This document shows positions 5,848 through 49,640 of a stretch of 64,000 bases of DNA, one piece after another (the stretch's first letter is position 1; each line of letters starts with the position of its first letter). The position numbers and the translations under genes were made by a program. Below the pieces are notes generated by a model. The model was not told the origin of the DNA. It was given only the letters and a program-made list of their open reading frames with translations, and did no database searches. This stretch comes from a phage: sequence record PZ445453.1; one strand, given 5' to 3'.

Positions 5848-6252
5848 ATGTGGTCTGTTAAAATCAAATATAATGCACAGTATTATGGTGGACAACCTTA
5901 TGAAGTTGTTATTTGTGACTGTATCTCTAAAGAAGTTGCACAGCTTTGTGGCGCTGGCGTTAGTGAAGCTATGAACAAAATGCATAACTCGACTGTGCGT
6001 TACCTGGATCAAGATATTCCAGAAGATGTAAATGACTATGCTTACGAAGTTATTTACAGTGAAGGTAAGAAGCTCTCTATTGAAGATGCACTTAAAGCAC
6101 TACCTGCTATGTGCAGCCCAACACCAGAAGCAGTTAAAGAGATTTTACCAGAATCCAACCCCGATGAATATGCCTCTATGGTTGCTTCAGATATGTGGAA
6201 TCTCTGTCGAGAAACTATGATTAAAAATCTTGTGGAAATGGCGCATGAGTAA
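5848..6252 (+). CDS. hypothetical protein
   Basis: 134-aa ORF. Confidence 0.55.
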   Translation: MWSVKIKYNAQYYGGQPYEVVICDCISKEVAQLCGAGVSEAMNKMHNSTVRYLDQDIPEDVNDYAYEVIYSEGKKLSIEDALKALPAMCSPTPEAVKEILPESNPDEYASMVASDMWNLCRETMIKNLVEMAHE

Positions 6253-6463
6253 AACACACTTTATACATCCGTTTGATCCAAAGAACAAGGCTGTTATACA
6301 CCGCCGTTGGACTGAAACGCGCATTACGAAATGTCCTGTGCCAGCAGCACAGGAATATAACAAAACATATAAAGCAGAATTTGTGGAGTACACCTTTATA
6401 AATAACAAAGGGAAGGAGGTTTATGTTCCAGAATACTGCCTTTGGATAAAATGGGAGGAATAA
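6245..6463 (+). CDS. hypothetical protein
   Basis: ORF trimmed to ATG 6245 overlapping upstream stop. Confidence 0.4.
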   Translation: MSKTHFIHPFDPKNKAVIHRRWTETRITKCPVPAAQEYNKTYKAEFVEYTFINNKGKEVYVPEYCLWIKWEE

Positions 6464-6630
6464 TGCAAACATTTTTTATCGACAAGTTCAATAAAAATAT
6501 GAACACGTGGATGGCAACATTCACTATGCAATTTGCGTCGTTTAAAGAAGCTCAAGAATGGTGCGATCAACACAAGGATTTTGATTTTTACTATCAAATC
6601 AATCTGAATCTCTCTCCAGAGGAGAAATAA
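6463..6630 (+). CDS. hypothetical protein
   Basis: ORF trimmed to ATG 6463 after GGGAGG. Confidence 0.4.
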   Translation: MQTFFIDKFNKNMNTWMATFTMQFASFKEAQEWCDQHKDFDFYYQINLNLSPEEK

Positions 6631-6631
6631 T

Positions 6632-6976
6632 ATGTTGGCTGATATTGAAATCCTTATGTACCGACAAGGTATGATCAAAATGTGGCTGGACTCTTTTAGC
6701 AACATATACAGCACAGTGCGATCAGCAGAGGAGCGTAAAACGCTTATTTTATCTGCTATTGTTGATAAACAACGTTTCTTCAAAGAAGTTTTGCAAACAG
6801 GCTTCTCCGATGCAGGAGTAGAGATTGCAACTCTTAGTCTTGGGGTGCTGTCTTACTTGGAGTCCGTTGTTTTATATGTCTTCTCTTTAGAAGAAGACTT
6901 GCAATTTGAAGCATTAAAACTTATCTTAGATGCTGCAATTGACATAGAACAAAATCGAATTGATTCTTTTGAATAA
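6632..6976 (+). CDS. hypothetical protein
   Basis: 114-aa ORF. Confidence 0.5.
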   Translation: MLADIEILMYRQGMIKMWLDSFSNIYSTVRSAEERKTLILSAIVDKQRFFKEVLQTGFSDAGVEIATLSLGVLSYLESVVLYVFSLEEDLQFEALKLILDAAIDIEQNRIDSFE

Positions 6977-6992
6977 AAATAAGGAGAAAACT

Positions 6993-7451
6993 ATGCAAGA
7001 GGTTAAACATTATCCACATGGTCGTAGTTTTGTAGCTGTATGGCATGTTCCTGCTCGTAATGAACTGTTTTGTGCATCTTTTCATTACAAAGATGGACAA
7101 TATTTCACCTATGACGAGACGATGGATGATTTTATCCCAGAGTGCGATCATGGGTATACACCAATGTTCTTTAAACGTATGAAAGCTCGTTTCTTCGTTA
7201 CAGATGTTGATGGTGAACCTACTTGGCACATCGAAGAAGATTGGCAAGATTCTGTGGATATTAAAGAAGCCCCAGAATGGGCTACACTACTGGTACACGT
7301 GAAAACCCCTACCCTTGACATTATGGCGTGGGTTAATCATGATGATACCCATTACCAATACATAAACAGTAGCACAGAGATTTCTGGTGAGATTATTGGT
7401 CGTTGGAAGCCTACGAATCAGGTTGCTATTGTCGGATATAAGGCAGTATAA
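6993..7451 (+). CDS. hypothetical protein
   Basis: Start at ATG 6993 after AAGGAG. Confidence 0.5.
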   Translation: MQEVKHYPHGRSFVAVWHVPARNELFCASFHYKDGQYFTYDETMDDFIPECDHGYTPMFFKRMKARFFVTDVDGEPTWHIEEDWQDSVDIKEAPEWATLLVHVKTPTLDIMAWVNHDDTHYQYINSSTEISGEIIGRWKPTNQVAIVGYKAV

Positions 7452-7452
7452 T

Positions 7453-7647
7453 ATGAAAAGTAGCGTAGATTGGGATGATTTATCCGCTTTTGAAAAATGG
7501 TTCTTAGGTAGTGGTTGTTATGCAGATGGGGATCTCGAAAGAGATCCTTCTGGAAACTACATTATGCCATTAACCCAAGGTTTTTATGAGTGCTGGTGCG
7601 CAGCACAAAACAACGTACTGAATAAGGAGACAACACAATGCAATTAA
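7453..7647 (+). CDS. hypothetical protein
   Basis: ORF trimmed to ATG 7453 directly after upstream stop. Confidence 0.4.
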   Translation: MKSSVDWDDLSAFEKWFLGSGCYADGDLERDPSGNYIMPLTQGFYECWCAAQNNVLNKETTQCN

Positions 7648-7877
7648 ACATCGGACAACCAATTTTTGATGCAGATACTGGTCAATATGCAGTGATTGTT
7701 GCTCGTATGAGCGGTGATGACTTTATTGTTTCAGAACTACTGGAATCAGATCCGCAACTGCGTGTGGTTTGTGACCTATATCTTCGAGACGAAAGTGATC
7801 GCATTGCACTGAAAGAAGATGGTATGCTTTACTACACCTGGACTAGAGATCCTGGTGTAAAGGAGGTAGAGGTATAA
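7638..7877 (+). CDS. hypothetical protein
   Basis: 79-aa ORF with AAGGAG RBS. Confidence 0.5.
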   Translation: MQLNIGQPIFDADTGQYAVIVARMSGDDFIVSELLESDPQLRVVCDLYLRDESDRIALKEDGMLYYTWTRDPGVKEVEV

Positions 7878-8176
7878 TGGTAAGGAATAGGGGTTTACAT
7901 AAAAGAAGACACCTTACTTACTGGCATCGCAAAGTACATGAACCTGTATCAAAGAAAGAATGGCAATACCTGCCTTATGGAAAGGAGCGAAGGAAGTATT
8001 TGTTAGCTCATTTAAGAGTACATGGTTCGCTTCCTGTTAACAGTAAGTGGCAATTGCAAACAGTTTATGACGAAGATATGAAATATCTGTTAAAGAGAGG
8101 CATTATTTGCCTTGTTAAGATAGGACGATGGAAATCTCGTCAATCTTATATCGTACTTAAACAGGAGAAACCATGA
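7877..8176 (+). CDS. hypothetical basic protein
   Basis: 99-aa ORF, Lys/Arg-rich. Confidence 0.5.
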   Translation: MVRNRGLHKRRHLTYWHRKVHEPVSKKEWQYLPYGKERRKYLLAHLRVHGSLPVNSKWQLQTVYDEDMKYLLKRGIICLVKIGRWKSRQSYIVLKQEKP

Positions 8177-8424
8177 ATATCAAAGATGTTGTAGCATATG
8201 TAGAAGATGAAGTTAAAAACCATACAAGTTTACTGAAAGTAATGGTTGTGGTTAAAAATGGCATTGGACAAGTAAACGTACAACATGTCTTATCTGATAC
8301 TGTATATAATGTGTTTGAATGTAAAGACACACCTCATGGAGTACGTGTGGTGTATATTGATAACAATTTCAAAGAATGTGTGAGACATACCTTAGAAAAT
8401 GAACTAAGGATCACAATCTTATGA
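8173..8424 (+). CDS. hypothetical protein
   Basis: 83-aa ORF, ATGA overlap. Confidence 0.5.
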   Translation: MNIKDVVAYVEDEVKNHTSLLKVMVVVKNGIGQVNVQHVLSDTVYNVFECKDTPHGVRVVYIDNNFKECVRHTLENELRITIL

Positions 8425-8594
8425 GTTATTATGTTGTACCCTATGCCAATAAGTGGAGAGTAAGAGAAACTTGTTTTCTATTCTCCTGGTGGGCTACGTT
8501 CGGAGATGGTTGTGGAAATGATACAGGGAAGCCTGTAGAGTATGACACAAAAGAAGAATGTGAACAGTGGATAAAATTAACACAAAGATGTTGA
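8421..8594 (+). CDS. small Cys-containing protein (sub-threshold ORF)
   Basis: 57-aa ORF not in supplied track; ATGA overlap with upstream gene. Confidence 0.3.
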   Translation: MSYYVVPYANKWRVRETCFLFSWWATFGDGCGNDTGKPVEYDTKEECEQWIKLTQRC

Positions 8595-8647
8595 CACGAT
8601 CTTAACTTCTTGTTAGTATCAATATGTACTAACGATAAGGAGGGTTT

Positions 8648-8872
8648 ATGAAGTCTGTAAACAAGTTGCAACAATTTTTGTTATCAACAGCAATCTTTTT
8701 GCTTTTGTTAATTGGTATTCTGTATGGTGCATCTAACTTATACAATCTACACAACAATGTAGAACATAATATAGAGAAGTGCACCATCCTAAAACACAAT
8801 AAACAAGCAGAAGATTTCTTAAAGAATAAGTGTTACAATTACATTGATTATGAGGAGACAAACAATGATTAA
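8648..8872 (+). CDS. small membrane protein, paralog family B
   Basis: N-terminal TM helix; KHNKQAEDFLKNKCYNYIDY resembles 3936..4154. Confidence 0.5.
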   Translation: MKSVNKLQQFLLSTAIFLLLLIGILYGASNLYNLHNNVEHNIEKCTILKHNKQAEDFLKNKCYNYIDYEETNND

Positions 8873-9107
8873 ACAATTAGGGATGCGAGTATACAGTGAG
8901 TGGACTCCAAGCAATGGCCCAGGAGTTGTTGCAGCTAAATGTATCAATGGTCGTATTGAGTACCTGGAAGGTTATGAAGATAATGAAGAGTTAGTAGATT
9001 ATGCTAAATCTTTTATTGAAGATGATACAGACTTTATTGTATTGTATGATACAGGAGAGTTAGAGTATGGATATGATGGAGATGGGGATATCTTTGAACT
9101 TCAATAA
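8865..9107 (+). CDS. hypothetical acidic protein
   Basis: ORF trimmed to ATG 8865 after GAGGAG. Confidence 0.45.
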   Translation: MIKQLGMRVYSEWTPSNGPGVVAAKCINGRIEYLEGYEDNEELVDYAKSFIEDDTDFIVLYDTGELEYGYDGDGDIFELQ

Positions 9108-9125
9108 GAGTAGTAAGTAAGATAT

Positions 9126-9174
9126 AAAGAGTATATAGTTAGTTATAGAGTTAGTAACATTACATATACTCTTT
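9126..9174. repeat. intergenic inverted repeat (AAAGAGTATAT ... ATATACTCTTT)
   Basis: 11-bp arms read at 9126-9136 and 9164-9174. Confidence 0.5.
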
Positions 9175-9314
9175 CCATGTATAACATGGAATATTCTCTA
9201 CCTCGCTATCGCTCGGTATATAAGATTAGGGTAGCATGTTTTTTACGAAAAGTAAAACTGTTTGTACCGATTGATAGCAGGTTTTTAATAGATTTTATCT
9301 ATGAGGAGTAGAAA

Positions 9315-9533
9315 GTGTACAAATTATATAAAGCAAAAGATAAGTTTACGGGTAATACATCTGGTTTCTATGTAACACCACGAGGTGTTGCTGTATTTGA
9401 TTGGATCTCTGGTACTCCAGATCGTGAAATGATCTCTCTTGTAAAACTGTCAGAACAAGAGTACACTTACGGTGACATTACAACATTCTATTCTCGTGCA
9501 GAGAATCCAAAACTGATTGCGGAGTGGGAATAA
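9315..9533 (+). CDS. hypothetical protein (GTG start)
   Basis: 72-aa ORF, GAGGAG RBS upstream of GTG. Confidence 0.45.
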   Translation: MYKLYKAKDKFTGNTSGFYVTPRGVAVFDWISGTPDREMISLVKLSEQEYTYGDITTFYSRAENPKLIAEWE

Positions 9534-12878: not shown

Positions 12879-13100
12879 ATGTCTGTAGTTGTAGAAGGTA
12901 GTATTGGTTTCTTAGTAGATAACCCTCACCCTTTCGTGGTTAAGGTTCATATTCAAGAAAAGGTAAGCAACAATACGTGGCTGTGCTTGTTAGATAGTAA
13001 GATACACTCTTATACAGAGGTTTATCTTCACACTTGGCAAATTGGTACGATAACAGCAGAGGATGAATTGATAATTGAACTATATGAACGAGATCTATAG
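12879..13100 (+). CDS. hypothetical protein
   Basis: 73-aa ORF with AGGAGG RBS. Confidence 0.45.
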   Translation: MSVVVEGSIGFLVDNPHPFVVKVHIQEKVSNNTWLCLLDSKIHSYTEVYLHTWQIGTITAEDELIIELYERDL

Positions 13101-13180
13101 ATGACTTTATTAGAGAGTATTGTAGTGTTAATCATCTTTATCATTGTTGTCATAGGATATTTTACAGAAGACTAAAATAA

Positions 13181-13213
13181 AGCCCCTAGAATCGCTTCTA
13201 GGGGCTTTTGTTT
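13181..13213. terminator. bidirectional intrinsic terminator at strand-switch
   Basis: 11-bp stem AGCCCCTAGAA/TTCTAGGGGCT flanked by A-run and T-run. Confidence 0.7.
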
Positions 13214-13275
13214 GCATAAGGTAGGGAAACGTATTACTAAAATAAAAAGTGCGTTAGAATGCGTTACAGGAGGTT

Positions 13276-13533
13276 TTAGGAATGCATAAAATCTTCTTCA
13301 GGACAGGTTGAGAGATAAGAAATGCACGTTGGGACAACAACAACATTATCTTTAAGGTTTGCAACCAAACCTTTTGTAATCCCAGCTACTGCCCCGTTAA
13401 TATCTGCTTGACGGATACCAAAACCTTGTTGTGCGGATAGATAACAAAATCCCTCACCTTTCTGTTGATTATTATTGAAGTAATAAACGTAGTGCATCAT
13501 AAAATGGTCTTTAACGATTTGTTCTGTGGTCAT
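13276..13533 (-). CDS. hypothetical protein
   Basis: 85-aa ORF. Confidence 0.5.
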   Translation of the reverse strand: MTTEQIVKDHFMMHYVYYFNNNQQKGEGFCYLSAQQGFGIRQADINGAVAGITKGLVANLKDNVVVVPTCISYLSTCPEEDFMHS

Positions 13534-13544
13534 AATATTCTCCT

Positions 13545-13570
13545 ATAAGAAAAGGGGCTTTCGCCCCCTT
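13545..13570 (-). terminator. intrinsic terminator
   Basis: GGGGC-TTTC-GCCCC hairpin; T-run on minus strand. Confidence 0.6.
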
Positions 13571-13577
13571 GGTTAAG

Positions 13578-14390
13578 TTATTTAGTCAAATGATCTTCTA
13601 TCATTTTTATGAAAGCAGGATTGCTAAAAGCATCTGCGGCCTTTTCTCGATAAACAAAGACTCCTCTATCTTCGTAAAGAAGAGTTTCTTCGTAATTAAT
13701 TCCTGGGTTAACAACGATCATTTTTGTACCCATATTAAGTGCAGGGAATAATTCCCAATTAAAATTGATAACTTGGTTTGAACATCCTACTACTACAACC
13801 AAATCTTGCATGGTTAAAGTATCAAACAAGTGAGCCATATCTGCATACAAAGGTGCAGCCTCACCAAAAAATACAACATTAGGCTTCACCCAGTTATAAT
13901 CATCTATGTTTATACTGCTGTAACCAATATCTACCAGTGTCTTGTAATCTCCAGGATGCATACGATAAACTATTTCAGGAAGATATCCGTGCACGTGAAT
14001 AACAGAATCCCTGTCTACACCTGCTCGCTCTAGTAGATCATCGACGTTTGTTGTCAAGTTTACTACTTGGTTAGGATATTCCTTAAACCACTTTGCTATT
14101 TGAATATGTGCAGCATTAGGTTGTACATCTTTAAGCTCAACACGTCTTTTGTTATAAAATTCGTGTGTTTTGGCATACAAATCCATACCGTTCTCGTCTA
14201 CACCACCAACCACGGGAAGATCTGGAGATGTTCTAACACGATAACCTGCTTGGAAAGCTCCAATATCGCAGACCTCTTGTAAATCATATTCCTCCCATAA
14301 GGCACGACCACTATCTGTGTCTGTTCGGAATGTTCGAATCCCACTGTCTGCACTTAAACCAGCGCCACTGACAAAAATTACTCTTCGCAT
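13578..14390 (-). CDS. Sir2-family (sirtuin-like) NAD+-dependent enzyme lacking Zn-ribbon
   Basis: GAGLSADSGIRTFR, TTNVDDL and VHG motifs; no CxxC...CxxC module. Confidence 0.8.
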   Translation of the reverse strand: MRRVIFVSGAGLSADSGIRTFRTDTDSGRALWEEYDLQEVCDIGAFQAGYRVRTSPDLPVVGGVDENGMDLYAKTHEFYNKRRVELKDVQPNAAHIQIAKWFKEYPNQVVNLTTNVDDLLERAGVDRDSVIHVHGYLPEIVYRMHPGDYKTLVDIGYSSINIDDYNWVKPNVVFFGEAAPLYADMAHLFDTLTMQDLVVVVGCSNQVINFNWELFPALNMGTKMIVVNPGINYEETLLYEDRGVFVYREKAADAFSNPAFIKMIEDHLTK

Positions 14391-14947
14391 TCAATATCCT
14401 CTTCGTAATCATCATCCCAAGAAGATGCATCGTAACGCTCTTCCTCTTCGAAATCCCAATTAATTTCTACTCCAAAATCTAAAAACAATTTAACAATGTT
14501 TTCTGTAGAATAGTATTTATCATAAGCGTTAGCTAGTTCCCAATACTTGTCACTCAATTTTTTATAAGTAGGATCATTATAGTCATAATCTACTTTATAA
14601 CCATAGTCATACATCTCTTGTTCAGCTTTAAGCATAGCTTCTGGTGTAAGAAGATTAGGGAACGGACGATTTCTTTCTTTTAACTTAGAAGCGATCCAGT
14701 TTGCAACATTCGCCACTTCACCATCTCGATTATCACCTAAACAACTTGCATAATCTCCATCTTCGTAAGTGCCTAAATCCCCACTCACTTCATGTACAAT
14801 AGATGAATACGATCCACACGTTTCACAATCTGAAAAAGTGTCTACTGTTGTAATATCAATAGATAAAACTGGTAAAGCCATAGCTTCTTTCACACAAGCC
14901 TCCTCATATAATAACATGTCATCAAAACCCATATATCCTCCAGACAA
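14378..14947 (-). CDS. highly acidic hypothetical protein co-transcribed with Sir2-like gene
   Basis: 189 aa, Asp/Glu/Tyr-rich C-terminus; 13-nt overlap with Sir2 start. Confidence 0.55.
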   Translation of the reverse strand: MSGGYMGFDDMLLYEEACVKEAMALPVLSIDITTVDTFSDCETCGSYSSIVHEVSGDLGTYEDGDYASCLGDNRDGEVANVANWIASKLKERNRPFPNLLTPEAMLKAEQEMYDYGYKVDYDYNDPTYKKLSDKYWELANAYDKYYSTENIVKLFLDFGVEINWDFEEEERYDASSWDDDYEEDIECEE

Positions 14948-14968
14948 ATAAAGCCCCTGTTTGGGGCT
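14944..14968 (-). terminator. intrinsic terminator / 5' leader hairpin
   Basis: AGCCCC-TGTTT-GGGGCT hairpin; T-run on minus strand. Confidence 0.55.
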
Positions 14969-14985
14969 TTGGTTAAGTTTTACGG

Positions 14986-15015
14986 ATTATACCAGACTTT
15001 TAAGGTACTTGTCAA
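14986..15015 (-). promoter_or_regulatory. sigma70-consensus promoter (TTGACA-N18-TATAAT) on minus strand
   Basis: Reverse complement reads cccTTGACAagtaccttaaaagtctggTATAATccg. Confidence 0.55.
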
Positions 15016-15262
15016 GGGCTTCTTGATCACCTTGACAAACATAGCAACGGAAGTCTTGAGCAGAAGGTTCTTTGTCCTCGTCCCAATAGACAGTACCTTT
15101 ATAGCGTGAGCCTGGGAACTCGAAGTATGCCACATGAGTAATATGGTGTGGGCCACCCCAAAACTCTGTAAAAGTAAATTGAGGATACGCTGCTTTAACT
15201 GTATTTTCAAACCAAGTTTTACGATCTAATGCTTCGTTTATAAAATAAGCATGGCGTTCCAT
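14987..15262 (-). CDS. hypothetical protein
   Basis: 91-aa ORF. Confidence 0.5.
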   Translation of the reverse strand: MERHAYFINEALDRKTWFENTVKAAYPQFTFTEFWGGPHHITHVAYFEFPGSRYKGTVYWDEDKEPSAQDFRCYVCQGDQEALDKYLKSLV

Positions 15263-15311
15263 TTCATCCCAATCTTTCCAAACGCATCTACAAAGTTAAA
15301 CTCTAAACCTT

Positions 15312-15836
15312 TCATACAACCTCCTCGTAATTGTTATTGTGTTTTACTGTCTCAACATACAATAAAGATTCCATCTGTAATACATTACCAGAAATAATAA
15401 ACCCATAAGCCATTTCAGATGTGTCTATATCATATGCCCCGTCTTCCGGTTTAGCAAAGTGTAAAATTATTTCATCTGGGTTTTCTTCATCCCATATTTT
15501 AGAAATTTTCCGAACCAGAATATTAGCTAAAATAGTTGACATTCGGGATAAAGCTGTATCCTCATATCTTTTAAAACCTAACCAATAGAGGTTAAGAATT
15601 TCTACTTCTTCTTGTGTTAAGTTTTTGTCTAAAGTAATCAGATCTGTAGGATACATCGTTTCTGTTGAACCTACTATTACAAAACCTGGAGTGTTATGAA
15701 AAACAATCTTAACTTTATCACGTATGAAGTTTAAACCTTGTGCCTCAACTATATATTGTATTGTAGGTACAATATCGTTTGTTACATCAATAAAGCTATC
15801 TTTAATGACACTTATATTATTTCTGGACAAGACCAT
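15312..15836 (-). CDS. hypothetical protein
   Basis: 174-aa ORF. Confidence 0.5.
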   Translation of the reverse strand: MVLSRNNISVIKDSFIDVTNDIVPTIQYIVEAQGLNFIRDKVKIVFHNTPGFVIVGSTETMYPTDLITLDKNLTQEEVEILNLYWLGFKRYEDTALSRMSTILANILVRKISKIWDEENPDEIILHFAKPEDGAYDIDTSEMAYGFIISGNVLQMESLLYVETVKHNNNYEEVV

Positions 15837-16395
15837 TCTCCTCTAAAATAGGTTTAATAAATTCGAAGATTTGTTTTTTACTTTTACCTCGAATATTAAA
15901 ACAAGGAACATTAAACTTTTTAGCCAACATCCAAGCTGTTCTTGTACCACCTAAAGGATCTCCATTTTTATCTGTATTTGCACAAGCTAAAAGAAAACAA
16001 GATGGTTTTGGATTCTCAAGATCTCTGCCAAGAACTTGGTGGATATTTCTTTGATGTAATTTTTTAGCACCTTGAGATAATCTGTCCCAAGCTGGATGCA
16101 ATTCTTTTGCATATTGCAAGGTTAGAGCATAGTTTACACTATCTGGTCTGTCAAGAACAATAACCTCTCCCTCTATCTCATTACCTTTAAACGAAGGCCA
16201 AGGAATGTATATTTCTTTCTTTGTATTGTTTCCACTATCATACACCCCGCATTCAAATGCGGAATCTGCACCTTCTGCTTTACCAGATCGTAAAATGAAC
16301 CATGTAGATAACCATTTTGCAACAGCTACCATAGTGTCCCATTCTTCGTCTGTAATATCTCTGCTACCAACACCTGTGTAGAATAAATCGCTCAT
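15817..16395 (-). CDS. SLOG/DprA-like Rossmann-fold protein
   Basis: YTGVGSRDIT ... SGKAEGADSAFECG pattern; start set to ATG 16395 with AAGGAG RBS, the 38-aa extension in the track rejected. Confidence 0.5.
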   Translation of the reverse strand: MSDLFYTGVGSRDITDEEWDTMVAVAKWLSTWFILRSGKAEGADSAFECGVYDSGNNTKKEIYIPWPSFKGNEIEGEVIVLDRPDSVNYALTLQYAKELHPAWDRLSQGAKKLHQRNIHQVLGRDLENPKPSCFLLACANTDKNGDPLGGTRTAWMLAKKFNVPCFNIRGKSKKQIFEFIKPILEENGLVQK

Positions 16396-16405
16396 GGTTT
16401 TCTCC

Positions 16406-16726
16406 TTAACAAGTAATATTGGGAATAATACTGGGAGTAACAATTGGAGTAATAGGGTACGTAAACCAAGGGCTTCCAATTTCCCAAGGACTATAAGGTG
16501 TACGAGGATCAAATGGAGGCGTTACTTGAGGCTTTTTCCACATCTCCGCTAGTTGTTTCTTCCATTTATCCCTTGCTGTATCGTTATCTTCATCCAACTG
16601 CTCGTCATTATCTTTTATTTCTGATTTTGGAAATAAAAGCTCTTTGACTAACTCAACGTCTTCCGTTTCAATAGTAGTTTCTTTCGTAATATTCCCTACC
16701 GTCTCTTTAATTGTGACTTTATACAT
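16406..16726 (-). CDS. hypothetical protein
   Basis: 106-aa ORF with GAGGAGG RBS. Confidence 0.45.
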   Translation of the reverse strand: MYKVTIKETVGNITKETTIETEDVELVKELLFPKSEIKDNDEQLDEDNDTARDKWKKQLAEMWKKPQVTPPFDPRTPYSPWEIGSPWFTYPITPIVTPSIIPNITC

Positions 16727-17472
16727 TAGTCCTCCTCTAAAGTAGAATAAAATTGTAACGTATTTGAATCATCAAAATATGCAAAGGTTAAATTACCATT
16801 GAAGCAAGATCCTGTATCCATATATACCCTATTACTGCTAATTACAGGTTTAGGAACATAAGAATGCCCGTGAAATACATAATCTACTCCTGAAACTCTA
16901 GGAAGAAGAATTCCTTCAAGTGCGCAATCTATCATATCACGATCCCACATTAAAGATTCTGTGAATCGAGATACTTGTTCTTTATTCATATTCGAACAAA
17001 ATGGCAAAACTTCCGTCACTGGCAGATGTTCCAAAACTGAAGGATATCCTCCGTGAATAAAGCCTAGTTTCATATTACGATAATTGACAACAAGTACAAC
17101 AGGTAAGTCTTCTAGCATCAAAGCAAGAGCAGTTGCACCTTCTTCTCCACACTCGTTTAAAACTGTATGGCCTCCGTTCTGAAACCAACATTCGTAATAT
17201 CGCCTATCACCTTCTAGCAACCCTTTAATCATCATATCTTCGTGGTTCCCACGGATACCATAACGATTTAGCTTTCTGGTGAATTCAACAACACAACGAA
17301 AATTCTGCTTGCCGCGATCTGTAAGATCTCCTAAAGATACAACAACATCTTGATCTCGGATACCTAAAGTATTAACACCTTTCTGGTACAAATCAAAGCA
17401 ACCATGTAAATCACCAATAATAAACAGGTCTTGATCATCTTTTACACTAATTTCTTGATATACTAGCATCAA
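16726..17472 (-). CDS. Ser/Thr protein phosphatase (calcineurin-like metallophosphoesterase)
   Basis: GDLHGCFD, GDLTDRG, GNHE motifs in order. Confidence 0.85.
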   Translation of the reverse strand: MMLVYQEISVKDDQDLFIIGDLHGCFDLYQKGVNTLGIRDQDVVVSLGDLTDRGKQNFRCVVEFTRKLNRYGIRGNHEDMMIKGLLEGDRRYYECWFQNGGHTVLNECGEEGATALALMLEDLPVVLVVNYRNMKLGFIHGGYPSVLEHLPVTEVLPFCSNMNKEQVSRFTESLMWDRDMIDCALEGILLPRVSGVDYVFHGHSYVPKPVISSNRVYMDTGSCFNGNLTFAYFDDSNTLQFYSTLEED

Positions 17473-17805: not shown

Positions 17806-18378
17806 TTAATGTGTTAATGAAACTGCGTAACTAAACACAGGTTCAGATATTACATCGGCTACAGTAATAAAAACGTCCTCATCTTGCGTTGTTTCTACAC
17901 GACATACAGTTACACCATTTACTACAAATTCAACGCAATGAGGAATATCTTCACAAACGAATGTAGTGTAAGTAACACCCAAAGCATCATACAAAGATTT
18001 AACAGTGTTTGCAAGTGCCGCAGTTTCTTCTTTTTCTGAGACAATGAATGCTGTAACAACAAGATTGTTTGCATAGTTTAGACTGTCCTCTATAGCCAAT
18101 GATTTACAAGGTAGTAATGCAAAATATTTACCTGGTTTAATCAGACCTGCTTCCCATTGATTCAAAATTGCTTGGGATGGTTTAGTAATATAAAACAGAT
18201 TTTCGCTTGGATTATCAATATTACTTCTGGCGATACAACGTGAAGGATTATTAATATCAAACACATGATCAAAATCTACACAAACTGGTAAACTGAAAGG
18301 TGTGAATTTTTTATCTAATAATCCTACTGCTGACAATATGTTTGCTGTGCTTATCTTCCCGTTAAAAGCTAAACGCAT
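17806..18378 (-). CDS. hypothetical protein
   Basis: 190-aa ORF. Confidence 0.5.
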   Translation of the reverse strand: MRLAFNGKISTANILSAVGLLDKKFTPFSLPVCVDFDHVFDINNPSRCIARSNIDNPSENLFYITKPSQAILNQWEAGLIKPGKYFALLPCKSLAIEDSLNYANNLVVTAFIVSEKEETAALANTVKSLYDALGVTYTTFVCEDIPHCVEFVVNGVTVCRVETTQDEDVFITVADVISEPVFSYAVSLTH

Positions 18379-19777: not shown

Positions 19778-20279
19778 AATAGAAAGGTTGAGTTAAACCC
19801 AGCCTGTTTTTTGGGTCGTAGACGTACCAAGCATATGCTGTCTTATCAGTACCACCTGCAACAAAAGATGGTCGTTCAGAAAGAACAATCAAATTTGTTG
19901 GTGGATTCTGTTTATGGAATTCCCTTCGTTTAATAGACTCTAGGAACCCAAGACGCAACAAGTATATGCAAACGTCTGCTTCTTTTAAGCTCTTTTGCAA
20001 GAACTCAAGTGCAAGTCTGAATGGTGGATTTGTGATTATAATATCCGGCTTAGTATGCCATTCGTGGTTAAAATAATCCTTCCCTTCTTCTAACTCACAA
20101 TATTCTGATCCTTCTGGAAAATGTTGATAAATTGCAGCAGCAGCGCCTTTACACGGTTCTGCAAAAATAAAACCTTCTTCTTTAAGGTTATTAAAATCTA
20201 TTACACTAAATAATGCATTTATACATTTTTGTGGAGTAGGATAGTAATCAGTTGGTGGACGATCATACTTATTTGCCAC
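19770..20279 (-). CDS. putative DNA N6-adenine methyltransferase (small)
   Basis: IITNPPF (motif IV N/DPPF/Y) and EPCKGAAA (SAM-binding-like). Confidence 0.55.
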   Translation of the reverse strand: MANKYDRPPTDYYPTPQKCINALFSVIDFNNLKEEGFIFAEPCKGAAAAIYQHFPEGSEYCELEEGKDYFNHEWHTKPDIIITNPPFRLALEFLQKSLKEADVCIYLLRLGFLESIKRREFHKQNPPTNLIVLSERPSFVAGGTDKTAYAWYVYDPKNRLGLTQPFYFV

Positions 20280-20697
20280 TACTTAAAATCTCCTCTTTTG
20301 TGATTTCAGGGTTTTCTTCAAAAACCATAATATCTCTTAAGAACGTTAATTCTTCCATAGATACTGGTATTGTATCTTCTTCTGTTTTTCGTTTACATAA
20401 ATCGTCAAGAAAGTTTTTAATGTTTTCTGACACATCGTAAAATTTCAACAGTTGATAATCACAGGAGGAGATCCTATCTAGTTCTAACATCCTTTCTAAG
20501 ATATTTTCTGTGTTGCCGTACAACACACGAACTTCTCCGAAAGGGTTGACTAAATATTGTGAATTTCTAAACCATCCCTTTTTAGATACAGTGTAACGCT
20601 GTTCTGCTAAACTTTCAATAAAATTTTTAGCTCTTTTACAGTTTTGTTCTAAAGAGTAGTAGGCTTTTTCTACAAATATTACAGGTACTGGTAACAT
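20269..20697 (-). CDS. hypothetical protein
   Basis: 142-aa ORF; GGAGGA RBS. Confidence 0.5.
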   Translation of the reverse strand: MLPVPVIFVEKAYYSLEQNCKRAKNFIESLAEQRYTVSKKGWFRNSQYLVNPFGEVRVLYGNTENILERMLELDRISSCDYQLLKFYDVSENIKNFLDDLCKRKTEEDTIPVSMEELTFLRDIMVFEENPEITKEEILSSGK

Positions 20698-20737
20698 ATC
20701 TCCTCCTAATAACCCCCTTAAGGGGGTTTATGATAGA

Positions 20738-21391
20738 TTAATTATCAGAGGATACTTTATCAAGTTTTTCAGAGACTGTCAATACTTTTTCTTGTGATTC
20801 TTTCATTTCTGCTAAAATACTTTCAGCTTCATCACTATCAGGATCACCAGTCAACAGCATACTAATTAGTTGCTCCTTGCTGAAGTTGAGAATATCTTCC
20901 GCTGTTAACTCCAGTTGTTCTTCGATCTCTTCGATAAAAGTTTCACCGCCTGAAAAAGCATCTCGTAGTTTTGCAACTTCCATCGCTTCTTCTGGGGTTG
21001 CCCCAGCATCTAAAGCTGCTAAAGCAAAATCTGCCCCACTACCAACTGCATAATAATCTTCAGTTAAAGGATATGCTCGCGTTGGATTATTACCCTCGTG
21101 CATATAAATTTTACCGTCAGGGTGAACAACCAATGCCACAAACTCTTCATCTTCTTTATCAGGATCTGACTGGATCACCAAACCTGGGATTGTCTCTTGT
21201 GCTGCCTGGCATTGTAAGTTTTGTTCAAACCAAGAAAAGAAAGTCAGGATAGAAGATAGACGTCCTGCACCACCAACGAGGTAGTCCCCAATTTTACGCA
21301 CTTTCTTGAAATTTAAAGTGTCTACACGACTACCTACTGTTACTTTACCATCAGACAGAATTTTGTTACGTGTTGCAATAATTGTTGTCAT
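20738..21391 (-). CDS. hslV: HslV-like Ntn-hydrolase peptidase with C-terminal acidic extension
   Basis: M-TTIIA N-terminus (Thr nucleophile), KVRKIGDYLVGGAG, AVGSGADFALAAL align to HslV TTIVS / KVRRL...AGFAGG / AIGSGG blocks. Confidence 0.65.
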   Translation of the reverse strand: MTTIIATRNKILSDGKVTVGSRVDTLNFKKVRKIGDYLVGGAGRLSSILTFFSWFEQNLQCQAAQETIPGLVIQSDPDKEDEEFVALVVHPDGKIYMHEGNNPTRAYPLTEDYYAVGSGADFALAALDAGATPEEAMEVAKLRDAFSGGETFIEEIEEQLELTAEDILNFSKEQLISMLLTGDPDSDEAESILAEMKESQEKVLTVSEKLDKVSSDN

Positions 21392-21882
21392 TATACTTCC
21401 TCCTGTAGTGTTTTAAGGACTGCTTTACCACCGCTTACATATTTACGGAGATAATCAATAGCTCTTAGTGTTTCTTTATCCACAAGAATTTTATTAGTTC
21501 TTGTTAGTGGATGATTTAGTAAATCACTGCAATTTCTTACTAACATAGATTTCTTGTGAAAGATGCTGCTAAGAAAAAGAAGTTTACAATCTTCTTCATC
21601 AATTAGGAGTAATTCTGAATTAGACCCAGCTACATTTATTATACACTCAAACAAGCCTTCTTGACTATCAGATAATTCCTGGTAATATTTAGTTAGCCAA
21701 TCCTCTCCTTTCAACCAACTAAAAAACATCTGAACTTTTTGCAAAGTTGTCATGTTCTCTAAACGAAGAGATATTTCTTTTTCAATCTTGTCAATATAAA
21801 TCTGTCTAAACTCATTCGGCTTAACTAAGCCAGCTTGATAGCATTCATCAATACCATTGCGATCAATCTCAATTAGCGTCAT
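21391..21882 (-). CDS. hypothetical protein
   Basis: 163-aa ORF, ATGA overlap with HslV-like gene. Confidence 0.5.
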   Translation of the reverse strand: MTLIEIDRNGIDECYQAGLVKPNEFRQIYIDKIEKEISLRLENMTTLQKVQMFFSWLKGEDWLTKYYQELSDSQEGLFECIINVAGSNSELLLIDEEDCKLLFLSSIFHKKSMLVRNCSDLLNHPLTRTNKILVDKETLRAIDYLRKYVSGGKAVLKTLQEEV

Positions 21883-21918
21883 TTAACCTCCATAACAGGC
21901 ATCCTTGCCTTGTAATTA

Positions 21919-22671
21919 TTAATATACTTCCGTGATGAACTGAGACAAACGGGAACGTTGGTTATCAGCAGTTGTCATTTCAACATAACCAATAAAATCT
22001 ACAATAGCTTCCCTTTCTCCTTCTTCGTTAATAGGAACAACACGATCTAACAAATCACCTAACCCATTAGCTCTTCGTTTAATTGCATATGTTTGATTAA
22101 CATCGCCCATAATGACAATACGTGTATTAAGACCTGCTCGCTCAAGGAGAAGTTTTACTGTATTTGGTGACATAAGTTGAACTTCATCAATAAGAATAAT
22201 GCTGTTATCCCACGTAGCACCTAGTGCATAGTTTGGAATATTAAGTTCAATTTTGCCACTTGCAATATCGTTTTCCAATTTATTTGCAGTCATAAACTGT
22301 TGGAAAATTCTTTTAGTTGATTCGTAGTGTGCTGCTAGTTTATCAGTCTTATCTCCAGATAAGAAACCAATCTGATCATCACCTACTTCTGTCGGGTTTT
22401 TAAGGAAAATCAACTTTCTGAAGTCACCAGCTTTAAGCATTTGCAATGCTTTCCATAGTGCTGTTGTTGTTTTTCCTGTTCCTGCTGGGGCATTAACAAT
22501 GGTTAAATCATTCCAAACCATGCTTCTTACAATAGCTTCTTGATTCCCAACAGGGGTAAATTCATCAAGACGGTAATCATCATTTCCTACTGCTTTAGCC
22601 GCATAACGACTGGCACGTTTGTCATCATTGGCTGCTGATTGACGACGAGCCTTTGCGGTTTTATTTCCCAT
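21919..22671 (-). CDS. phoH: PhoH-like ATPase
   Basis: Walker A NAPAGTGKTTTAL and PhoH-like context. Confidence 0.85.
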   Translation of the reverse strand: MGNKTAKARRQSAANDDKRASRYAAKAVGNDDYRLDEFTPVGNQEAIVRSMVWNDLTIVNAPAGTGKTTTALWKALQMLKAGDFRKLIFLKNPTEVGDDQIGFLSGDKTDKLAAHYESTKRIFQQFMTANKLENDIASGKIELNIPNYALGATWDNSIILIDEVQLMSPNTVKLLLERAGLNTRIVIMGDVNQTYAIKRRANGLGDLLDRVVPINEEGEREAIVDFIGYVEMTTADNQRSRLSQFITEVY

Positions 22672-46941: not shown

Positions 46942-47835
46942 ATGAAAGTTAGTATTCTACATGGTGTTGACTGTTATGTTACTGATGTAGACGTTAAAGT
47001 GTTTACATTCTCTGGTGGAGAACAACATGTTCAATTAGATACGAACCTGTCAGGTTTCAATCATGCTACAGACAGAATCTTACTCACTTTAGAAGTAAGA
47101 TCTGCTAAAGACTTGATGACTTTGGTTATGACTAAGAATGCATTGGACAATATGCTGTATCATAAACCATATTGTGTTGATTTACTCATGTTGTATGTAC
47201 CGTATGCACGACAAGACAGAGTGTGTGAGCCTGGGGAAGCATTCGGAGTTAAAGCATTTGCTTCTATAATTAATTCATTAAATTTCTCACGTGTTATCGT
47301 TGCTGATCCACATAGTGATGTTACTCCAGCAGTGTTTGACAGACTTTGTGTAATACCTCAAGAAGAGATTGCTTACGAAACTTTAAAATGGAAGTTACGT
47401 ATGGAGAATTTTGCTCTTGTTAGCCCTGATGGTGGTGCTCTTAAGAAAATATTTAAATTATCTAAGAAAATGGCTTTAGATGTGTTCTGTGCAGAGAAGG
47501 TTAGAGATACCGCAACAGGTGCTATTGTTCGTACAGACATTTCTGTACAGGATTTCAATAAGCGTAACCTGATGATCGTAGATGATATCTGTGATGGTGG
47601 TAGAACTTTTATTGAGTTGGCTAAAGTGCTACGTGCTCGTAACGCAGGTAAGATTGAGTTGTATGTTACACACGGTATCTTTTCTAAAGGTCTTAAAGAG
47701 TTAAGTGAGCACTTTGACTGCATTCATTCTCTTAATGTGTGGGAAGATAACATCCAAGAAGATTCCGGTGTTCTTGTTAAGAATCAGTCAGATTTGCAGC
47801 AACAAATTGTATCTCCATACGTGTGGAATTTTTAA
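46942..47835 (+). CDS. prs: ribose-phosphate pyrophosphokinase (PRPP synthetase)
   Basis: MIVDDICDGGRTF PRPP-binding loop, ~297 aa. Confidence 0.8.
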   Translation: MKVSILHGVDCYVTDVDVKVFTFSGGEQHVQLDTNLSGFNHATDRILLTLEVRSAKDLMTLVMTKNALDNMLYHKPYCVDLLMLYVPYARQDRVCEPGEAFGVKAFASIINSLNFSRVIVADPHSDVTPAVFDRLCVIPQEEIAYETLKWKLRMENFALVSPDGGALKKIFKLSKKMALDVFCAEKVRDTATGAIVRTDISVQDFNKRNLMIVDDICDGGRTFIELAKVLRARNAGKIELYVTHGIFSKGLKELSEHFDCIHSLNVWEDNIQEDSGVLVKNQSDLQQQIVSPYVWNF

Positions 47836-47906: not shown

Positions 47907-49640
47907 ATGAATATTTTTGCACCTTTTGCTACTGATTGGTATAAACCTGGTCACAAGCAGATGTACAACCAAAATACAAAACTCATTTTCTCTAATTTAA
48001 CTCCTCGTAATGATAAAAACTTTGCACACTATGCAGATCGTGAAGCACGTGGTGTCATTGTTTTAGGTATTCGTCGAGCAGTAACCGATGCTCTTGTAAC
48101 TATGTGGGACGGCTTCTTTAAAATGTCTCGTAGTGCAGCAGTAAATAAATTTTATCGTATGTCTAAGAATGCATTAGGTGCTTCTGCTCCTTCTGCTGAG
48201 TGTTGGGGTGAATTGCACGATTTAGGTTATCTTCCGCTGGAAGTTCGATCTCTGCCGGAAGGTGTTTTGTGTCCTATTGGTGTTCCTGTGTTTACTGTGC
48301 ATAATACTTTAGAAAAATTCTTTTGGTTAACTAACTATGTGGAAACACTGTTGTCAGATGAAACTTGGAAGACAATGACTAATGCCACAGCAGCTTTTCA
48401 GTATAAGCGTATCGCTATGGCATATGCGATGGCAACGTGTGATAATATTGATCACGTTAACTTCCAGTGTCATGATTTTAGCCTACGTGGTTTAAGCAAT
48501 ATCGAAGATGGTTATAAGAGTGGTATCGCTCATTTGGCATCTTTCACAGGAACAGATAATATTCTGGCTATTGAAACTGTGCATGATTATTATGGTATTG
48601 ATTATGATCAGTTTGTTGCAGGTTCTATTCCGGCAACAGAACATTCAGTAGCAACAACTAACATTGGAGCTATTGTTGAAGATCTGAAGAAACATTTCCC
48701 ACATCTTAAAGATGATGTAGATGGGCTTCGTTATGTAGCAGAAAAAGAGTTTCTTCGTCGTTATATCGAAGAAATTGTTCCAGAAGGTTTTTGTTCATAT
48801 GTAGCAGACTCTTATGACTATTGGGCTGTATTGACTCGCATTCTGGTAGAATTGAAAGATTCCATTATGTCACGAAATGGTCGTCTTGTTATTCGTCCAG
48901 ATTCAGGAGATCCGGTTAAAGTTGTTGCAGGATACAATGTTGAATCTTTTGATAACTATGAAGACCTCTTAAATAATGGTATTGCGACAGCCACTGAAGT
49001 AGTTCATTTGGCTGATGTTAATAAGTATTACAATGTTCTTCAGGATTGCAGCGTTGCTGATTGTATTGACGAAACTTATGAGATTCCTTATTGTGAAGCA
49101 GTAGGTTCTATTCAAATCCTTTGGGAAGTGTTTGGTGGTACTATCAACCGAAAAGGCTACAAGGTTCTTGATCAGCATATCGGTATGATTTATGGCGATT
49201 CTATTACTGTTGAACGAGAACACGAAATCTTACGCCGACTGAAGAAGAAAGGTTTTGCAGCTTCCAATATTGTATTTGGTGTTGGTAGTTATACTTATCA
49301 GTTCAATACACGAGATACTTTTGGTTTTGCTGTTAAAGCAACAGGTAGTATTATCGGTGAACACGAGATTTTGGTAAGTAAAGAGCCTAAAACTGATCCT
49401 GGTAAACGCTCTGCAAAAGGTTTTATTAAGGTTGTTAAGGATGCCAATGGTAATCTCTCTCTTGTAGATAATCTTTCTTTTAAAGATATCCAGGATGAAG
49501 ACAATGAATTACAAGTTATCTTCAAGGATGGTAAGGTTATTATACCACAAGTAGAAGGACGTGATGAAACATTCACTGATATCCGCAACCGTGTTGACGT
49601 AGAGGTTCTTCGTACTATGGGAACCATCCAGGTTGACTAA
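47907..49640 (+). CDS. nadV: nicotinamide phosphoribosyltransferase (Nampt)
   Basis: N-terminal TDWYKPGHKQMY resembles Nampt DSYKVTHYKQYP; SFTGTDN block. Confidence 0.88.
   Translation: MNIFAPFATDWYKPGHKQMYNQNTKLIFSNLTPRNDKNFAHYADREARGVIVLGIRRAVTDALVTMWDGFFKMSRSAAVNKFYRMSKNALGASAPSAECWGELHDLGYLPLEVRSLPEGVLCPIGVPVFTVHNTLEKFFWLTNYVETLLSDETWKTMTNATAAFQYKRIAMAYAMATCDNIDHVNFQCHDFSLRGLSNIEDGYKSGIAHLASFTGTDNILAIETVHDYYGIDYDQFVAGSIPATEHSVATTNIGAIVEDLKKHFPHLKDDVDGLRYVAEKEFLRRYIEEIVPEGFCSYVADSYDYWAVLTRILVELKDSIMSRNGRLVIRPDSGDPVKVVAGYNVESFDNYEDLLNNGIATATEVVHLADVNKYYNVLQDCSVADCIDETYEIPYCEAVGSIQILWEVFGGTINRKGYKVLDQHIGMIYGDSITVEREHEILRRLKKKGFAASNIVFGVGSYTYQFNTRDTFGFAVKATGSIIGEHEILVSKEPKTDPGKRSAKGFIKVVKDANGNLSLVDNLSFKDIQDEDNELQVIFKDGKVIIPQVEGRDETFTDIRNRVDVEVLRTMGTIQVD

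Follow-up and report, generated by a model that had tools for sequence, protein, structure and literature searches.

A phage sirtuin without zinc ligands and of probable CobB-type descent, with its acidic partner and its genomic company of SLOG and NARP1-type genes

Sirtuins have been noticed in phages before, and the one considered here, the Sir2 protein encoded on a stretch of 64,000 nucleotides of phage DNA (sequence record PZ445453.1; this whole stretch is called the window in the following), is a further member of a known, experimentally uncharacterised phage sirtuin clade, PHROG 2162. An in-silico study of KVP40-like phages modelled the Sir2 protein of this group on CobB, noted the missing zinc site together with the conserved histidine and an acetyl-lysine tunnel, described co-occurrence with the NAMPT/NMNAT genes of nicotinamide adenine dinucleotide (NAD+) salvage as well as a transcription peak at 20 min, listed Sir2 homologs in T5, SPC35 and GAP32, and arrived independently at the same deacetylase reading as the present analysis (Skliros et al. 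2016, PMC5107563). Based on gene neighbourhoods, a KptA-like role in RNA repair has been proposed for the clade, with rV5, Mydo, SP15 and Serratia phage BF as named examples (Iyer, Burroughs, Anantharaman & Aravind 2022, PMC9503650 section 3.7.3). Zinc loss and the link of the clade to NAD+ salvage are already in the literature, and the gene itself is already annotated as a sirtuin.

The other described system with a counterpart in the window is NARP1 (Osterman et al., Sorek lab), in which Adps pyrophosphorylates ADP-ribose (ADPR) and Namat adds nicotinamide to yield NAD+, and which overcomes SIR2-HerA and other NAD+-depleting defences. It was in four BASEL phages that the operon of a Prs-like and a Nampt-like gene attracted attention; the tests were made in Bas63, and NARP1 activity has been published for Bas63 and SPbetaL1 only (bioRxiv 10.1101/2024.02.11.579819). 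The extended version NARP1-AP, consisting of Adps, Namat and Adpp, counters the aRES defence (bioRxiv 10.64898/2026.01.28.702374).

Over bases 13000-17000 the window is 100% identical to Escherichia phage JohannJBalmer (BASEL Bas62, MZ501084.1; Stephanstirmvirinae, Justusliebigvirus) and 97-98% identical to phi92 and some 50 relatives. A first-pass annotation of this DNA had likened its sirtuin to the NAD+-consuming SIR2 domains of defence systems, and had suggested that together with an acidic partner protein, a SLOG/DprA-like protein and NAD+ salvage genes it could form an NAD+/ADPR-centred module for counter-defence or host takeover. GenBank lists the first of these genes as 'sirtuin family protein', the second as 'putative aminoacyl-tRNA synthetase' and the third as 'putative DprA-like recombination protein'. 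The genes concerned, all found where the first-pass annotation had placed them, are the following:

13578..14390, minus strand: Sir2, zinc-less sirtuin of the phage Sir2 clade, 270 aa (Pfam SIR2 and PHROG 2162)
14378..14932, minus strand: acidic partner protein, 184 aa, or 189 aa if started at TTG 14947 (PHROG 9509, 1e-66)
15817..16395, minus strand: stand-alone SLOG-superfamily protein, 192 aa (PHROG 768, 'DprA-like', 2.3e-60)
46942..47835, plus strand: Prs-like, first gene of the NARP1-type operon (Adps, ADPR pyrophosphokinase; Pfam, PHROG 619)
47907..49640, plus strand: Nampt-like, second gene of the NARP1-type operon (Namat; Pfam NAPRTase 6.3e-38)

Since the genes at the Sir2 locus, the SLOG-like gene and the Prs-like/Nampt-like pair each match a PHROG family at E <= 1e-41, none of them is a chance open reading frame (ORF).

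With respect to the sirtuin, its membership of the Sir2 family is confirmed by a match to Pfam SIR2 (PF02146; 3.1e-22, 79.8 bits) above the threshold of 24 bits and by a full-length match to PHROG 2162 (6.5e-105), and the motifs that had been read from it, GAGLSADSGIRTFR, TTNVDDL and VHG, are all present in a set comprising GAGLS, FR, F78-Y79-N-K-R82-R83, TTNVDD, H133-G, FFGE, GCSN and VNP. According to profile comparison with the PDB, the closest solved relative is E. coli CobB (1s5p, 4.7e-18), and the best 60 matches are all classical deacylating sirtuins. In the alignment with CobB, GAGLSADSGIRTFR of the NAD+ loop stands opposite GAGISAESGIRTFR, TTNVDDL corresponds to TQNIDNL, IHVHG to IHMHG, KPNVVFFGE to RPHVVWFGE and VGCSNQV to IGTSGHV, and the class III signature FY-x-x-RR (F78 to R83) aligns with the FYNARR of CobB. 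The Tyr/Arg pair of this signature binds the carboxylate of succinyl- and malonyl-lysine in SIRT5 and CobB and marks class III sirtuins. Common to the window enzyme and the CobB/class III (SIRT5-like) sirtuins are thus the Pfam SIR2 domain, GAGxS..GIRTFR, the catalytic HG, FGE and FY-x-x-RR. When the protein is aligned with its 120 closest homologs, the motifs GAGxS, FR, FYNKRR, TTNVDDL, HG, KPNVxFFGE, VGCSNxVINFNWELFP and VNP are conserved at 95% or more, and this degree of conservation among phage homologs argues for a conserved enzymatic activity.

The absence of the Zn-ribbon of classical deacetylases, which had likewise been claimed, is borne out as regards the ligands. Between HG and FGE (residues 134-176) the protein contains no cysteine, whereas the aligned segment of CobB carries the zinc cysteines, and a Cys-rich column is missing from these residues across all 120 homologs, the highest value being 23% at position 168; zinc loss is therefore a feature of the clade and not of this particular gene. 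As the segment has retained about the same length as in CobB, the loss that the sequence shows is that of the ligands. Apart from the zinc cysteines, the enzyme differs from CobB by a TTN in place of TQN, by a variable insertion of ~20 aa before FYNKRR and by being encoded on a phage.

The proposed likeness to the NAD+-consuming SIR2 domains of defence systems did not hold up. No match was found to the PADLOC defence models of ThsA, DSR and SIR2-HerA, the sole PADLOC match being PDC-S65 (13.7 bits, 37 residues), and Pfam SIR2_2 was without a match even at E <= 10, so that a defence-type identity was rejected. The Sir2 superfamily fold is common to the window protein and to ThsA, DSR1/DSR2, SIR2-HerA and SPARSA, and ThsA-type SIR2 domains also lack the Cys4 zinc site. 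However, the window protein stands alone with its 270 aa, without a fusion to or a conserved operon with a sensor or partner (SLOG, HerA, pAgo, TIR), and in contrast to the defence NADases it keeps the deacylase-type FGE and GxS..N. Because its motifs align with those of CobB, its scores fall short of the CobB family cutoffs and no defence model matches, the enzyme is best regarded as a divergent zinc-less descendant of the CobB-type (class III) sirtuins and not as a relative of the ThsA, DSR or SIR2-HerA effectors. It thus comes close to the ordinary CobB-type deacetylase that the first-pass annotation had named as the opposite of its own proposal, and is kept apart from it by the missing zinc ligands and by scores below the CobB equivalog cutoff. 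The reading that we favour, if with somewhat less than even confidence, is that of a catalytically active CobB-like NAD+-dependent lysine deacylase, which would be used in host takeover or metabolic reprogramming and would not act as an NAD+-depleting effector.

By tblastn the family was found in 976 phage records, including phi92-like and phAPEC8-like phages, T5-like Demerecviridae, rV5, Mydovirus, KVP40-like Vibrio phages and jumbo phages, and the identity to the window protein amounts to ~52-60% in T5-like phages, 48-58% in rV5 and Mydovirus, and 39% in the KVP40-like Vibrio phages. The rV5 homolog, ORF84 (48% identity; 'similar to phage T5 putative Sir2-like protein' according to its record), follows upon RNA ligase 1 and ORF83 in this order, with a phosphoesterase nearby, and the WLDDxR motif of ORF83 may be read as cREC-like. 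The window enzyme is zinc-less like the other members of the clade (T5 'Sir2-like protein', rV5 ORF84, KVP40/phiSt2 Sir2/CobB), as reported for the KVP40 group (PMC5107563). Unlike these, it is paired with an acidic partner restricted to Stephanstirmvirinae, and it does not lie beside an RNA ligase as in rV5. Of the other carriers, the T5-like phage IrmaTschudi (local positions 20272-22228) combines a sirtuin of the same clade with a two-subunit NAD+-dependent DNA ligase and hence has at least two NAD+-consuming enzymes.

The very acidic protein (isoelectric point 4.05, net charge -32) encoded directly ahead of Sir2 had been described as a translationally coupled partner of 189 aa. The coupling is supported by an overlap of 13 nt between the two ORFs (ATGCGAAGAGTAA) and by a GAGGA Shine-Dalgarno sequence before the Sir2 ATG. 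The length, in turn, is more likely 184 aa, given that ATG 14932, which is preceded by GGAGGA and is also the start in GenBank, is a likelier start than TTG 14947. The protein belongs to no Pfam or NCBIfam family. Its AlphaFold2 model, with a predicted local distance difference test (pLDDT) score of 82.5 and a core above 90, combines four helices with a sheet of three strands and ends in one more strand, followed by an acidic tail that is disordered; it has no informative fold match in the PDB. Conserved in the alignment of its homologs are S-x-CETCG, GDLG and C64, as well as a C-terminal cysteine (C182) that is invariant because of the overlap with the ATG-C codons of Sir2.

In comparison with the 976 records for Sir2, the partner was found in 137 phage records, which are essentially Stephanstirmvirinae together with weak matches in a few jumbo phages. 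An exhaustive search of 1.84 billion cluster representatives with a hidden Markov model (HMM) of the partner returned 17 proteins at E <= 0.001, all short and stand-alone bar one artefact, and no partner-sirtuin fusion among these 17; the one long match, considered as a possible Rosetta-stone fusion, has 20 short stretches of similarity in 1224 aa and looks like a repeat artefact. In phAPEC8, which belongs to a different genus, the partner is 36% identical and shares 16 nt with Sir2. Klebsiella phage FKP3 has the gene of an HNH homing endonuclease (local positions 5561-6211) inserted between the two, overlapping both. No partner is found beside Sir2 in Klebsiella phage 05F01, in a T5-like phage and in rV5, the latter having its WLDDxR-motif protein in the place where the partner would be, and Serratia phage BF has a remote homolog of the partner without an annotated Sir2 at a distance of up to 7 kb. 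As most Sir2-bearing phages lack the partner, the two are not always found together in the manner of a toxin-antitoxin-like pair.

Two functional assignments of the partner were considered and discarded. That of an aminoacyl-tRNA synthetase goes back to nothing but a sub-threshold match to PheRS B1 (E 0.02, 15 bits with a cutoff of 26.8). That of a Cys4 zinc module acting on Sir2 in trans is unlikely, as only three cysteines (C36, C39, C64) are independently conserved and zinc-less phage sirtuins mostly occur without a partner. The acidic protein is a rare lineage-specific orphan which may act as a regulator or adaptor or else be a co-transcribed early protein, and which is not generally required by the enzyme.

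The pair is framed by the following transcription signals:

14986..15015, minus strand (15015->14986): TG-extended promoter of sigma-70 consensus type (TTGACA-18-TATAAT), preceding the partner-Sir2 pair
14950..14970, minus strand (14970->14950): GC-rich hairpin past the promoter and ahead of the partner start, its U-tract being weak (-14.6 kcal/mol)
13552..13570, minus strand (13570->13552): terminator-like hairpin immediately behind the stop codon of Sir2, with a U-tract (-15 kcal/mol)

Both hairpins that had been reported to bracket the pair are thus found. The promoter is the sole perfect match to TTGACA-N18-TATAAT in the 64-kb window, and the upstream ORF ends in a stop codon that overlaps with the -10 hexamer. 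The first hairpin lies ~20 nt past the promoter, is followed by GGAGGA and the partner ATG, and may terminate transcription of the upstream genes, attenuate that of the pair, or serve as a stem-loop that stabilises the 5' untranslated region or 5' end. In PaulScherrer the layout of promoter and hairpin is identical, and phAPEC8 has at the same place (local positions 4925-5015) TTGACA-18-TATAGT, an equivalent hairpin, a stronger U-tract and a Shine-Dalgarno sequence, as well as an equivalent hairpin after Sir2. This arrangement points to a separately promoted partner-Sir2 unit which would be read by host RNA polymerase. The 10-mer ACTTAACCAA occurs on the minus strand in exactly two copies in 64 kb (13569-13578 and 14969-14978; 0.22 expected by chance), which mark both ends of the partner-Sir2 cassette and are each followed by a GC hairpin, a T-rich run, a Shine-Dalgarno sequence and an ATG.

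The SLOG/DprA-like protein that had been noticed about 1.5 kb upstream is encoded 1.43 kb from the Sir2 start, and has the motifs YTGVGSR, LRSGKAxGxD, IHPAW, LHxRNxxQVLG and GGTRTAW. In an alignment of 40 sequences the residues G10, S11, R12, R36, G38, A40, G42, D44, F69, H114, R116, N117, Q120, G123, S132, G149, G150 and T151 are invariant. Its AlphaFold2 model (pLDDT 96.8) supports the SLOG fold, Foldseek placing H. pylori DprA first (1.8e-5) and further returning the molybdenum cofactor (Moco) carrier protein, the ThsA SLOG domain with 3'cADPR, YgdH, ShosA, YpsA and LOG; for DprA, the Moco carrier protein, the ThsA SLOG domain and LOG the probability is 1.0, at a template modelling score of ~0.5 and an identity of 10-18%. 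The window protein matches no Pfam family, DprA included, and no NCBIfam family, Pfam DNA_processg_A finds weak matches in 22 of 40 homologs (best 3.6e-6), and DprA appears in the PDB profile search with E 0.24 over 45 residues. Being a single domain of 192 aa without a Pfam DprA match, it is a SLOG protein and not a plain DprA, the alternative that the first-pass annotation had weighed for it. With the SLOG superfamily (DprA Rossmann domain, ThsA SLOG domain, YpsA, LOG, ShosA, Moco carrier protein) it has the fold and the Gly-rich GxGSR, SGxAxGxD and GGT loops in common; it differs by lacking the flanking domains of DprA, by invariant residues of its own (H100, H114, R116, N117, Q120) and by a family confined to phages.

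This family comprises 1246 phage records, from phages of Pseudomonas, Klebsiella, Escherichia, Aeromonas, Vibrio and Acinetobacter and from N4-like roseophages. In Pakpunavirus PAK_P4 an RNA ligase gene is followed, in this order, by those for AAA_33 ATPase, the Prs-like and Nampt-like proteins, Macro (Poa1p-like) and SLOG, in Otagovirus Psxphi15 the order is Prs-like, Nampt-like, phosphatase and SLOG, and in T4-like phages of Aeromonas and Acinetobacter no NARP1-type neighbours are found beside SLOG. The trio of Prs-like, Nampt-like and Macro genes is that of NARP1-AP; this neighbourhood in Pseudomonas phages is suggestive of an ADPR-related role, and the SLOG protein is a member of a known, uncharacterised phage family which elsewhere is associated with NARP1-AP. 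One homolog of 270 aa has a C-terminal DUF4326 (Pfam 1.4e-26), a domain which has been predicted to handle derivatives of ADPR and found in linkage with SLOG, Macro and NADAR (Iyer et al.). A fusion of SLOG with an NMN adenylyltransferase, as suggested by a GenBank label in Mydovirus, was dismissed, since the ORFs reveal a stand-alone SLOG protein of 212 aa. The record concerned is Klebsiella phage vB_Kpl_K54lambda1.1.1 (local positions 4995-6255), where a coding sequence named 'nicotinamide-nucleotide adenylyltransferase' overlaps the 212-aa SLOG ORF and most coding sequences are flagged as pseudogenes; the adenylyltransferase label appears to be wrong. A gene for a PnuC-like transporter is located 2.6 kb downstream of this SLOG ORF.

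The Nampt and Prs genes that had been placed at 46942-49640 were confirmed by Pfam and PHROGs. The two are adjacent and have 34% (E 9e-35) and 39% (E 2e-135) identity, respectively, to the Prs-like and Nampt-like proteins of Felixounavirus, the genus of Bas63; by architecture and homology the pair would be the known anti-defence system NARP1, and activity in Bas62 is predicted. Further BASEL carriers of the pair are EmilieFrey, PaulScherrer and JohannJBalmer, which by inference make up the published four phages together with Bas63. In contrast to NARP1-AP, no Macro (Adpp) gene is annotated beside the window pair, and the operon is 33 kb away from Sir2. A cluster of RNA ligase, PNK-like ATPase and phosphoesterase genes is found at 42157-44047, which is 28 kb from Sir2 and within 3 kb of the NARP1-type operon; in PAK_P4 (local positions 3118-9479) the corresponding genes are directly contiguous with it and with Macro/Adpp and SLOG. 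Such a neighbourhood of RNA repair and NAD+ reconstitution is recurrent.

As to the linkage of Sir2 and SLOG, the order phosphatase, SLOG, Sir2 is kept in Stephanstirmvirinae, even in so divergent a member as Klebsiella phage 05F01. What lies between SLOG and Sir2 is variable cargo of 1 to 4.5 kb (~1 kb in 05F01, ~4.5 kb in phAPEC8); in PaulScherrer ~3.0 kb separate SLOG from the partner gene, and the spacing of 1.4 kb in JohannJBalmer is due in part to a deletion of 2.15 kb. Outside this subfamily the two genes are unlinked, being 20 kb apart in a Mydovirus. Among Salmonella phages there are 289 Sir2 records as against 38 SLOG records, which implies that many Sir2-bearing phages of this genus lack a SLOG gene, and among Pseudomonas phages, a genus that is not among the listed Sir2 genera, there are 232 SLOG records, which by these genus counts are without Sir2. 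We conclude that Sir2 and SLOG represent a shared synteny and not a demonstrated functional module, and a coupled Sir2-SLOG-NARP1 module is not supported. Of the module suggested by the first-pass annotation there remains that the phage does have a predicted counter-defence centred on NAD+ in its NARP1-type operon, whereas Sir2, partner, SLOG and NARP1 do not form a conserved unit.

If the sirtuin is the deacylase proposed above, host RNA polymerase would transcribe it with the acidic partner from their own strong sigma-70 promoter, NAD+ would be bound via GAGxS/FR and TTNVDD, and His133 would serve as general base in taking acyl groups off lysines of host or phage proteins, with Tyr79-x-x-Arg82 favouring acidic acyl groups (succinyl, malonyl) as well as acetyl. 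The products would be nicotinamide and O-acyl-ADP-ribose; NARP1 could regenerate NAD+ from nicotinamide and the ADPR released by the sirtuin or by host NADases, and the SLOG-like gene and the NARP1 operon, although part of the same genome, would have functions apart from that of the sirtuin. What the sequences show directly is the family, the intact catalytic motifs, the missing zinc ligands, the gene overlap, the promoter and hairpins and the distribution; the class of substrate, the time of expression and a role of the partner, if it has one, we infer.

Several points weigh against a CobB-like deacylase. The protein stays below the NCBIfam CobB cutoffs (84.9 vs 320 for NF040867, 105.7 vs 243 for NF001753), the canonical TQN reads TTN, and substrate recognition may differ, because the zinc module that helps to build the peptide-binding cleft of classical sirtuins is without its ligands here. 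Also, a search of the literature found no experimental characterisation of any phage sirtuin of the PHROG 2162 clade, and the position of the rV5 ortholog between RNA ligase and the WLDDxR protein read as cREC-like fits the RNA-repair proposal (Iyer et al. 2022). According to the latter, the sirtuin would act like KptA/Tpt1 in transferring ADP-ribose from NAD+ onto the RNA 2'-phosphate left by host anticodon nucleases, thereby clearing the end for ligation, and nearby phosphoesterases would process the ADP-ribose cyclic phosphate. That the clade is named by its proponents (PMC9503650 section 3.7.3), that the rV5 neighbours include RNA ligase 1, the cREC-like-read ORF83 and a phosphoesterase, that a calcineurin-like phosphoesterase is encoded 2.3 kb upstream of Sir2 in the window, and that the conserved Tyr-x-x-Arg could hold a phosphate as well as a carboxylate all speak for it. 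However, the RNA ligase/PNK-like/phosphoesterase cluster of the window phage is 28 kb away, and the neighbourhood of RNA ligase, cREC, kinase, MazG and HAD genes is not found around its Sir2. In the T5-like IrmaTschudi, the annotation of the replication region, covering 49 kb around Sir2, contains no RNA ligase. Moreover, the T4-type Pnk/Rnl1 pathway leaves no 2'-phosphate, and we consider a role in RNA repair viable but unlikely for the window enzyme. Sirtuins are capable of ADP-ribosylation, and the enzyme might be a macromolecular ADP-ribosyltransferase which, comparable to T4 Alt/ModA/ModB or the class M sirtuins, would target either a nucleic acid or a host protein such as RNA polymerase, a translation factor or an immune protein, with the partner as specificity or inhibitory subunit. 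In line with this are the promoter, by which expression appears to be early and strong, the tight overlap of partner and Sir2 in two genera, and the ADP-ribosylating ability described for sirtuins (PMC9503650). Yet there is no macro-domain partner with Sir2 as in SirTM-type systems, most phages bearing the enzyme lack the acidic partner, and the enzyme shares with deacylases the conservation of its catalytic histidine and of the motifs of the acyl-lysine tunnel (FGE, GCSN..NF), which makes this explanation improbable.

A different question is whether the neighbouring genes act with the sirtuin at all. It is quite possible, if somewhat less than probable, that the acidic protein is an independent early protein, e.g., a nucleic-acid mimic or anti-restriction factor, which merely shares a promoter with Sir2. 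Its extreme acidity and disordered acidic tail, the homing HNH gene inserted between the two genes in FKP3, the absence of a sirtuin fusion among the 17 representatives, and the explanation of the conserved C-terminal cysteine by the overlap with ATG-C would all suit this explanation; on the other side are the overlapping stop and start, kept across two genera at 36% identity of the partner, and the failure to find a known DNA-mimic fold for its model. By far the least supported is a single NAD+/ADPR counter-defence module of Sir2, partner, SLOG and NAD+ salvage, in which Sir2 would be NADase-like and SLOG would sense or process a nucleotide signal. All the parts are present within one genome, the order phosphatase-SLOG-Sir2 extends across Stephanstirmvirinae as far as 05F01, SLOG homologs adjoin Adps-Namat-Macro(Adpp) in Pakpunavirus and Otagovirus, and one of them is fused to DUF4326, a domain predicted to act on ADPR derivatives (Iyer et al.). 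Against it, no defence-NADase model recognises Sir2, the linkage of Sir2 and SLOG does not extend beyond the one subfamily, within which variable cargo separates them, their genus counts diverge, and an NAD+-destroying enzyme would counteract the phage's own NARP1; such a module is therefore very improbable. A combined reading, likewise improbable, takes the zinc-less sirtuin as a counter-defence enzyme with the acidic orphan as its specificity or regulatory subunit in phi92-like phages, and SLOG, separately, as a hitherto undescribed NARP1 accessory. The sirtuin could then act on an immune or stress protein of the host, by deacylation or ADP-ribosylation, or else on an RNA end, which it would free of its 2'-phosphate, and SLOG would convert a non-canonical NAD+ breakdown product or immune signal, e.g., a cyclic ADPR isomer, to ADPR; if true, this would both quench signalling and feed NAD+ reconstitution.

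The remaining features around the locus are:

13179..13208, minus strand: strong intrinsic terminator with a 13-bp stem, closing the leftward transcription block (-22.1 kcal/mol, z -6.6)
13276..13533, minus strand: small conserved ORF, 85 aa, 3' of Sir2 and last gene of the leftward block (PHROG 15991, 4.3e-52)
14987..15262, minus strand: truncated remnant, 91 aa, of a ~203-aa gene (matches positions 112-202 of the 204-position PHROG 8514 profile only)
15312..15836, minus strand: hypothetical protein, 174 aa, flanked by the SLOG-like gene and the deletion scar (PHROG 8569, 9.4e-57)
16726..17472, minus strand: calcineurin-like (NinI-like) phosphoesterase, two genes upstream of the SLOG-like gene (Pfam Metallophos 1.8e-13; PHROG 246 4.8e-76)

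A small ORF, comparable by its position, is found downstream of Sir2 in PaulScherrer and phAPEC8. The 91-aa remnant is the C-terminal part of its gene, left behind by a deletion in JohannJBalmer of 2149 bp at window positions 14987-15330; the missing stretch is present in PaulScherrer, phi92 and most relatives and, according to the gene map of PaulScherrer, holds a Dcm-like C5 cytosine methyltransferase and three small genes. The gene at 17806-18378 codes for only 190 aa, is labelled 'putative aminoacyl-tRNA synthetase' in GenBank and matches PHROG 4806 'histidyl tRNA synthetase'; the aminoacyl-tRNA synthetase labels on this gene and on 14378-14932 look unreliable. The offset of the window relative to MZ501084.1 is 90311 at 13 kb and 90312 at 42-47 kb, implying a 1-bp insertion or deletion, and at an offset of 90312 the window would overrun the end of the linear record of 144,831 bp by ~9.5 kb; it therefore stems from a differently permuted or wrapped version of the genome. 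Several unannotated records of the MG0656xx series named Campylobacter (jejuni) phages are, in the regions that were compared, 97% identical to the phi92-like E. coli phage; probably they have been mislabelled or assembled from a contaminant.

The window itself adds little to what was known, as its sirtuin had already been annotated, the zinc loss and the NAD+ link had been published, and the NAD+ operon is the known NARP1. The recurrent placement of SLOG-like genes beside NARP1-AP in Pseudomonas phages offers a modest, testable lead. The sirtuin clade, in turn, extends to roughly a thousand phages of known sequence, among them T5 as a model phage and several BASEL phages propagating on E. coli K-12, and since NAD+ is a central battleground between phages and bacteria, whether a phage spends it on deacylation, RNA repair or ADP-ribosylation represents a real gap in the understanding of these phages.

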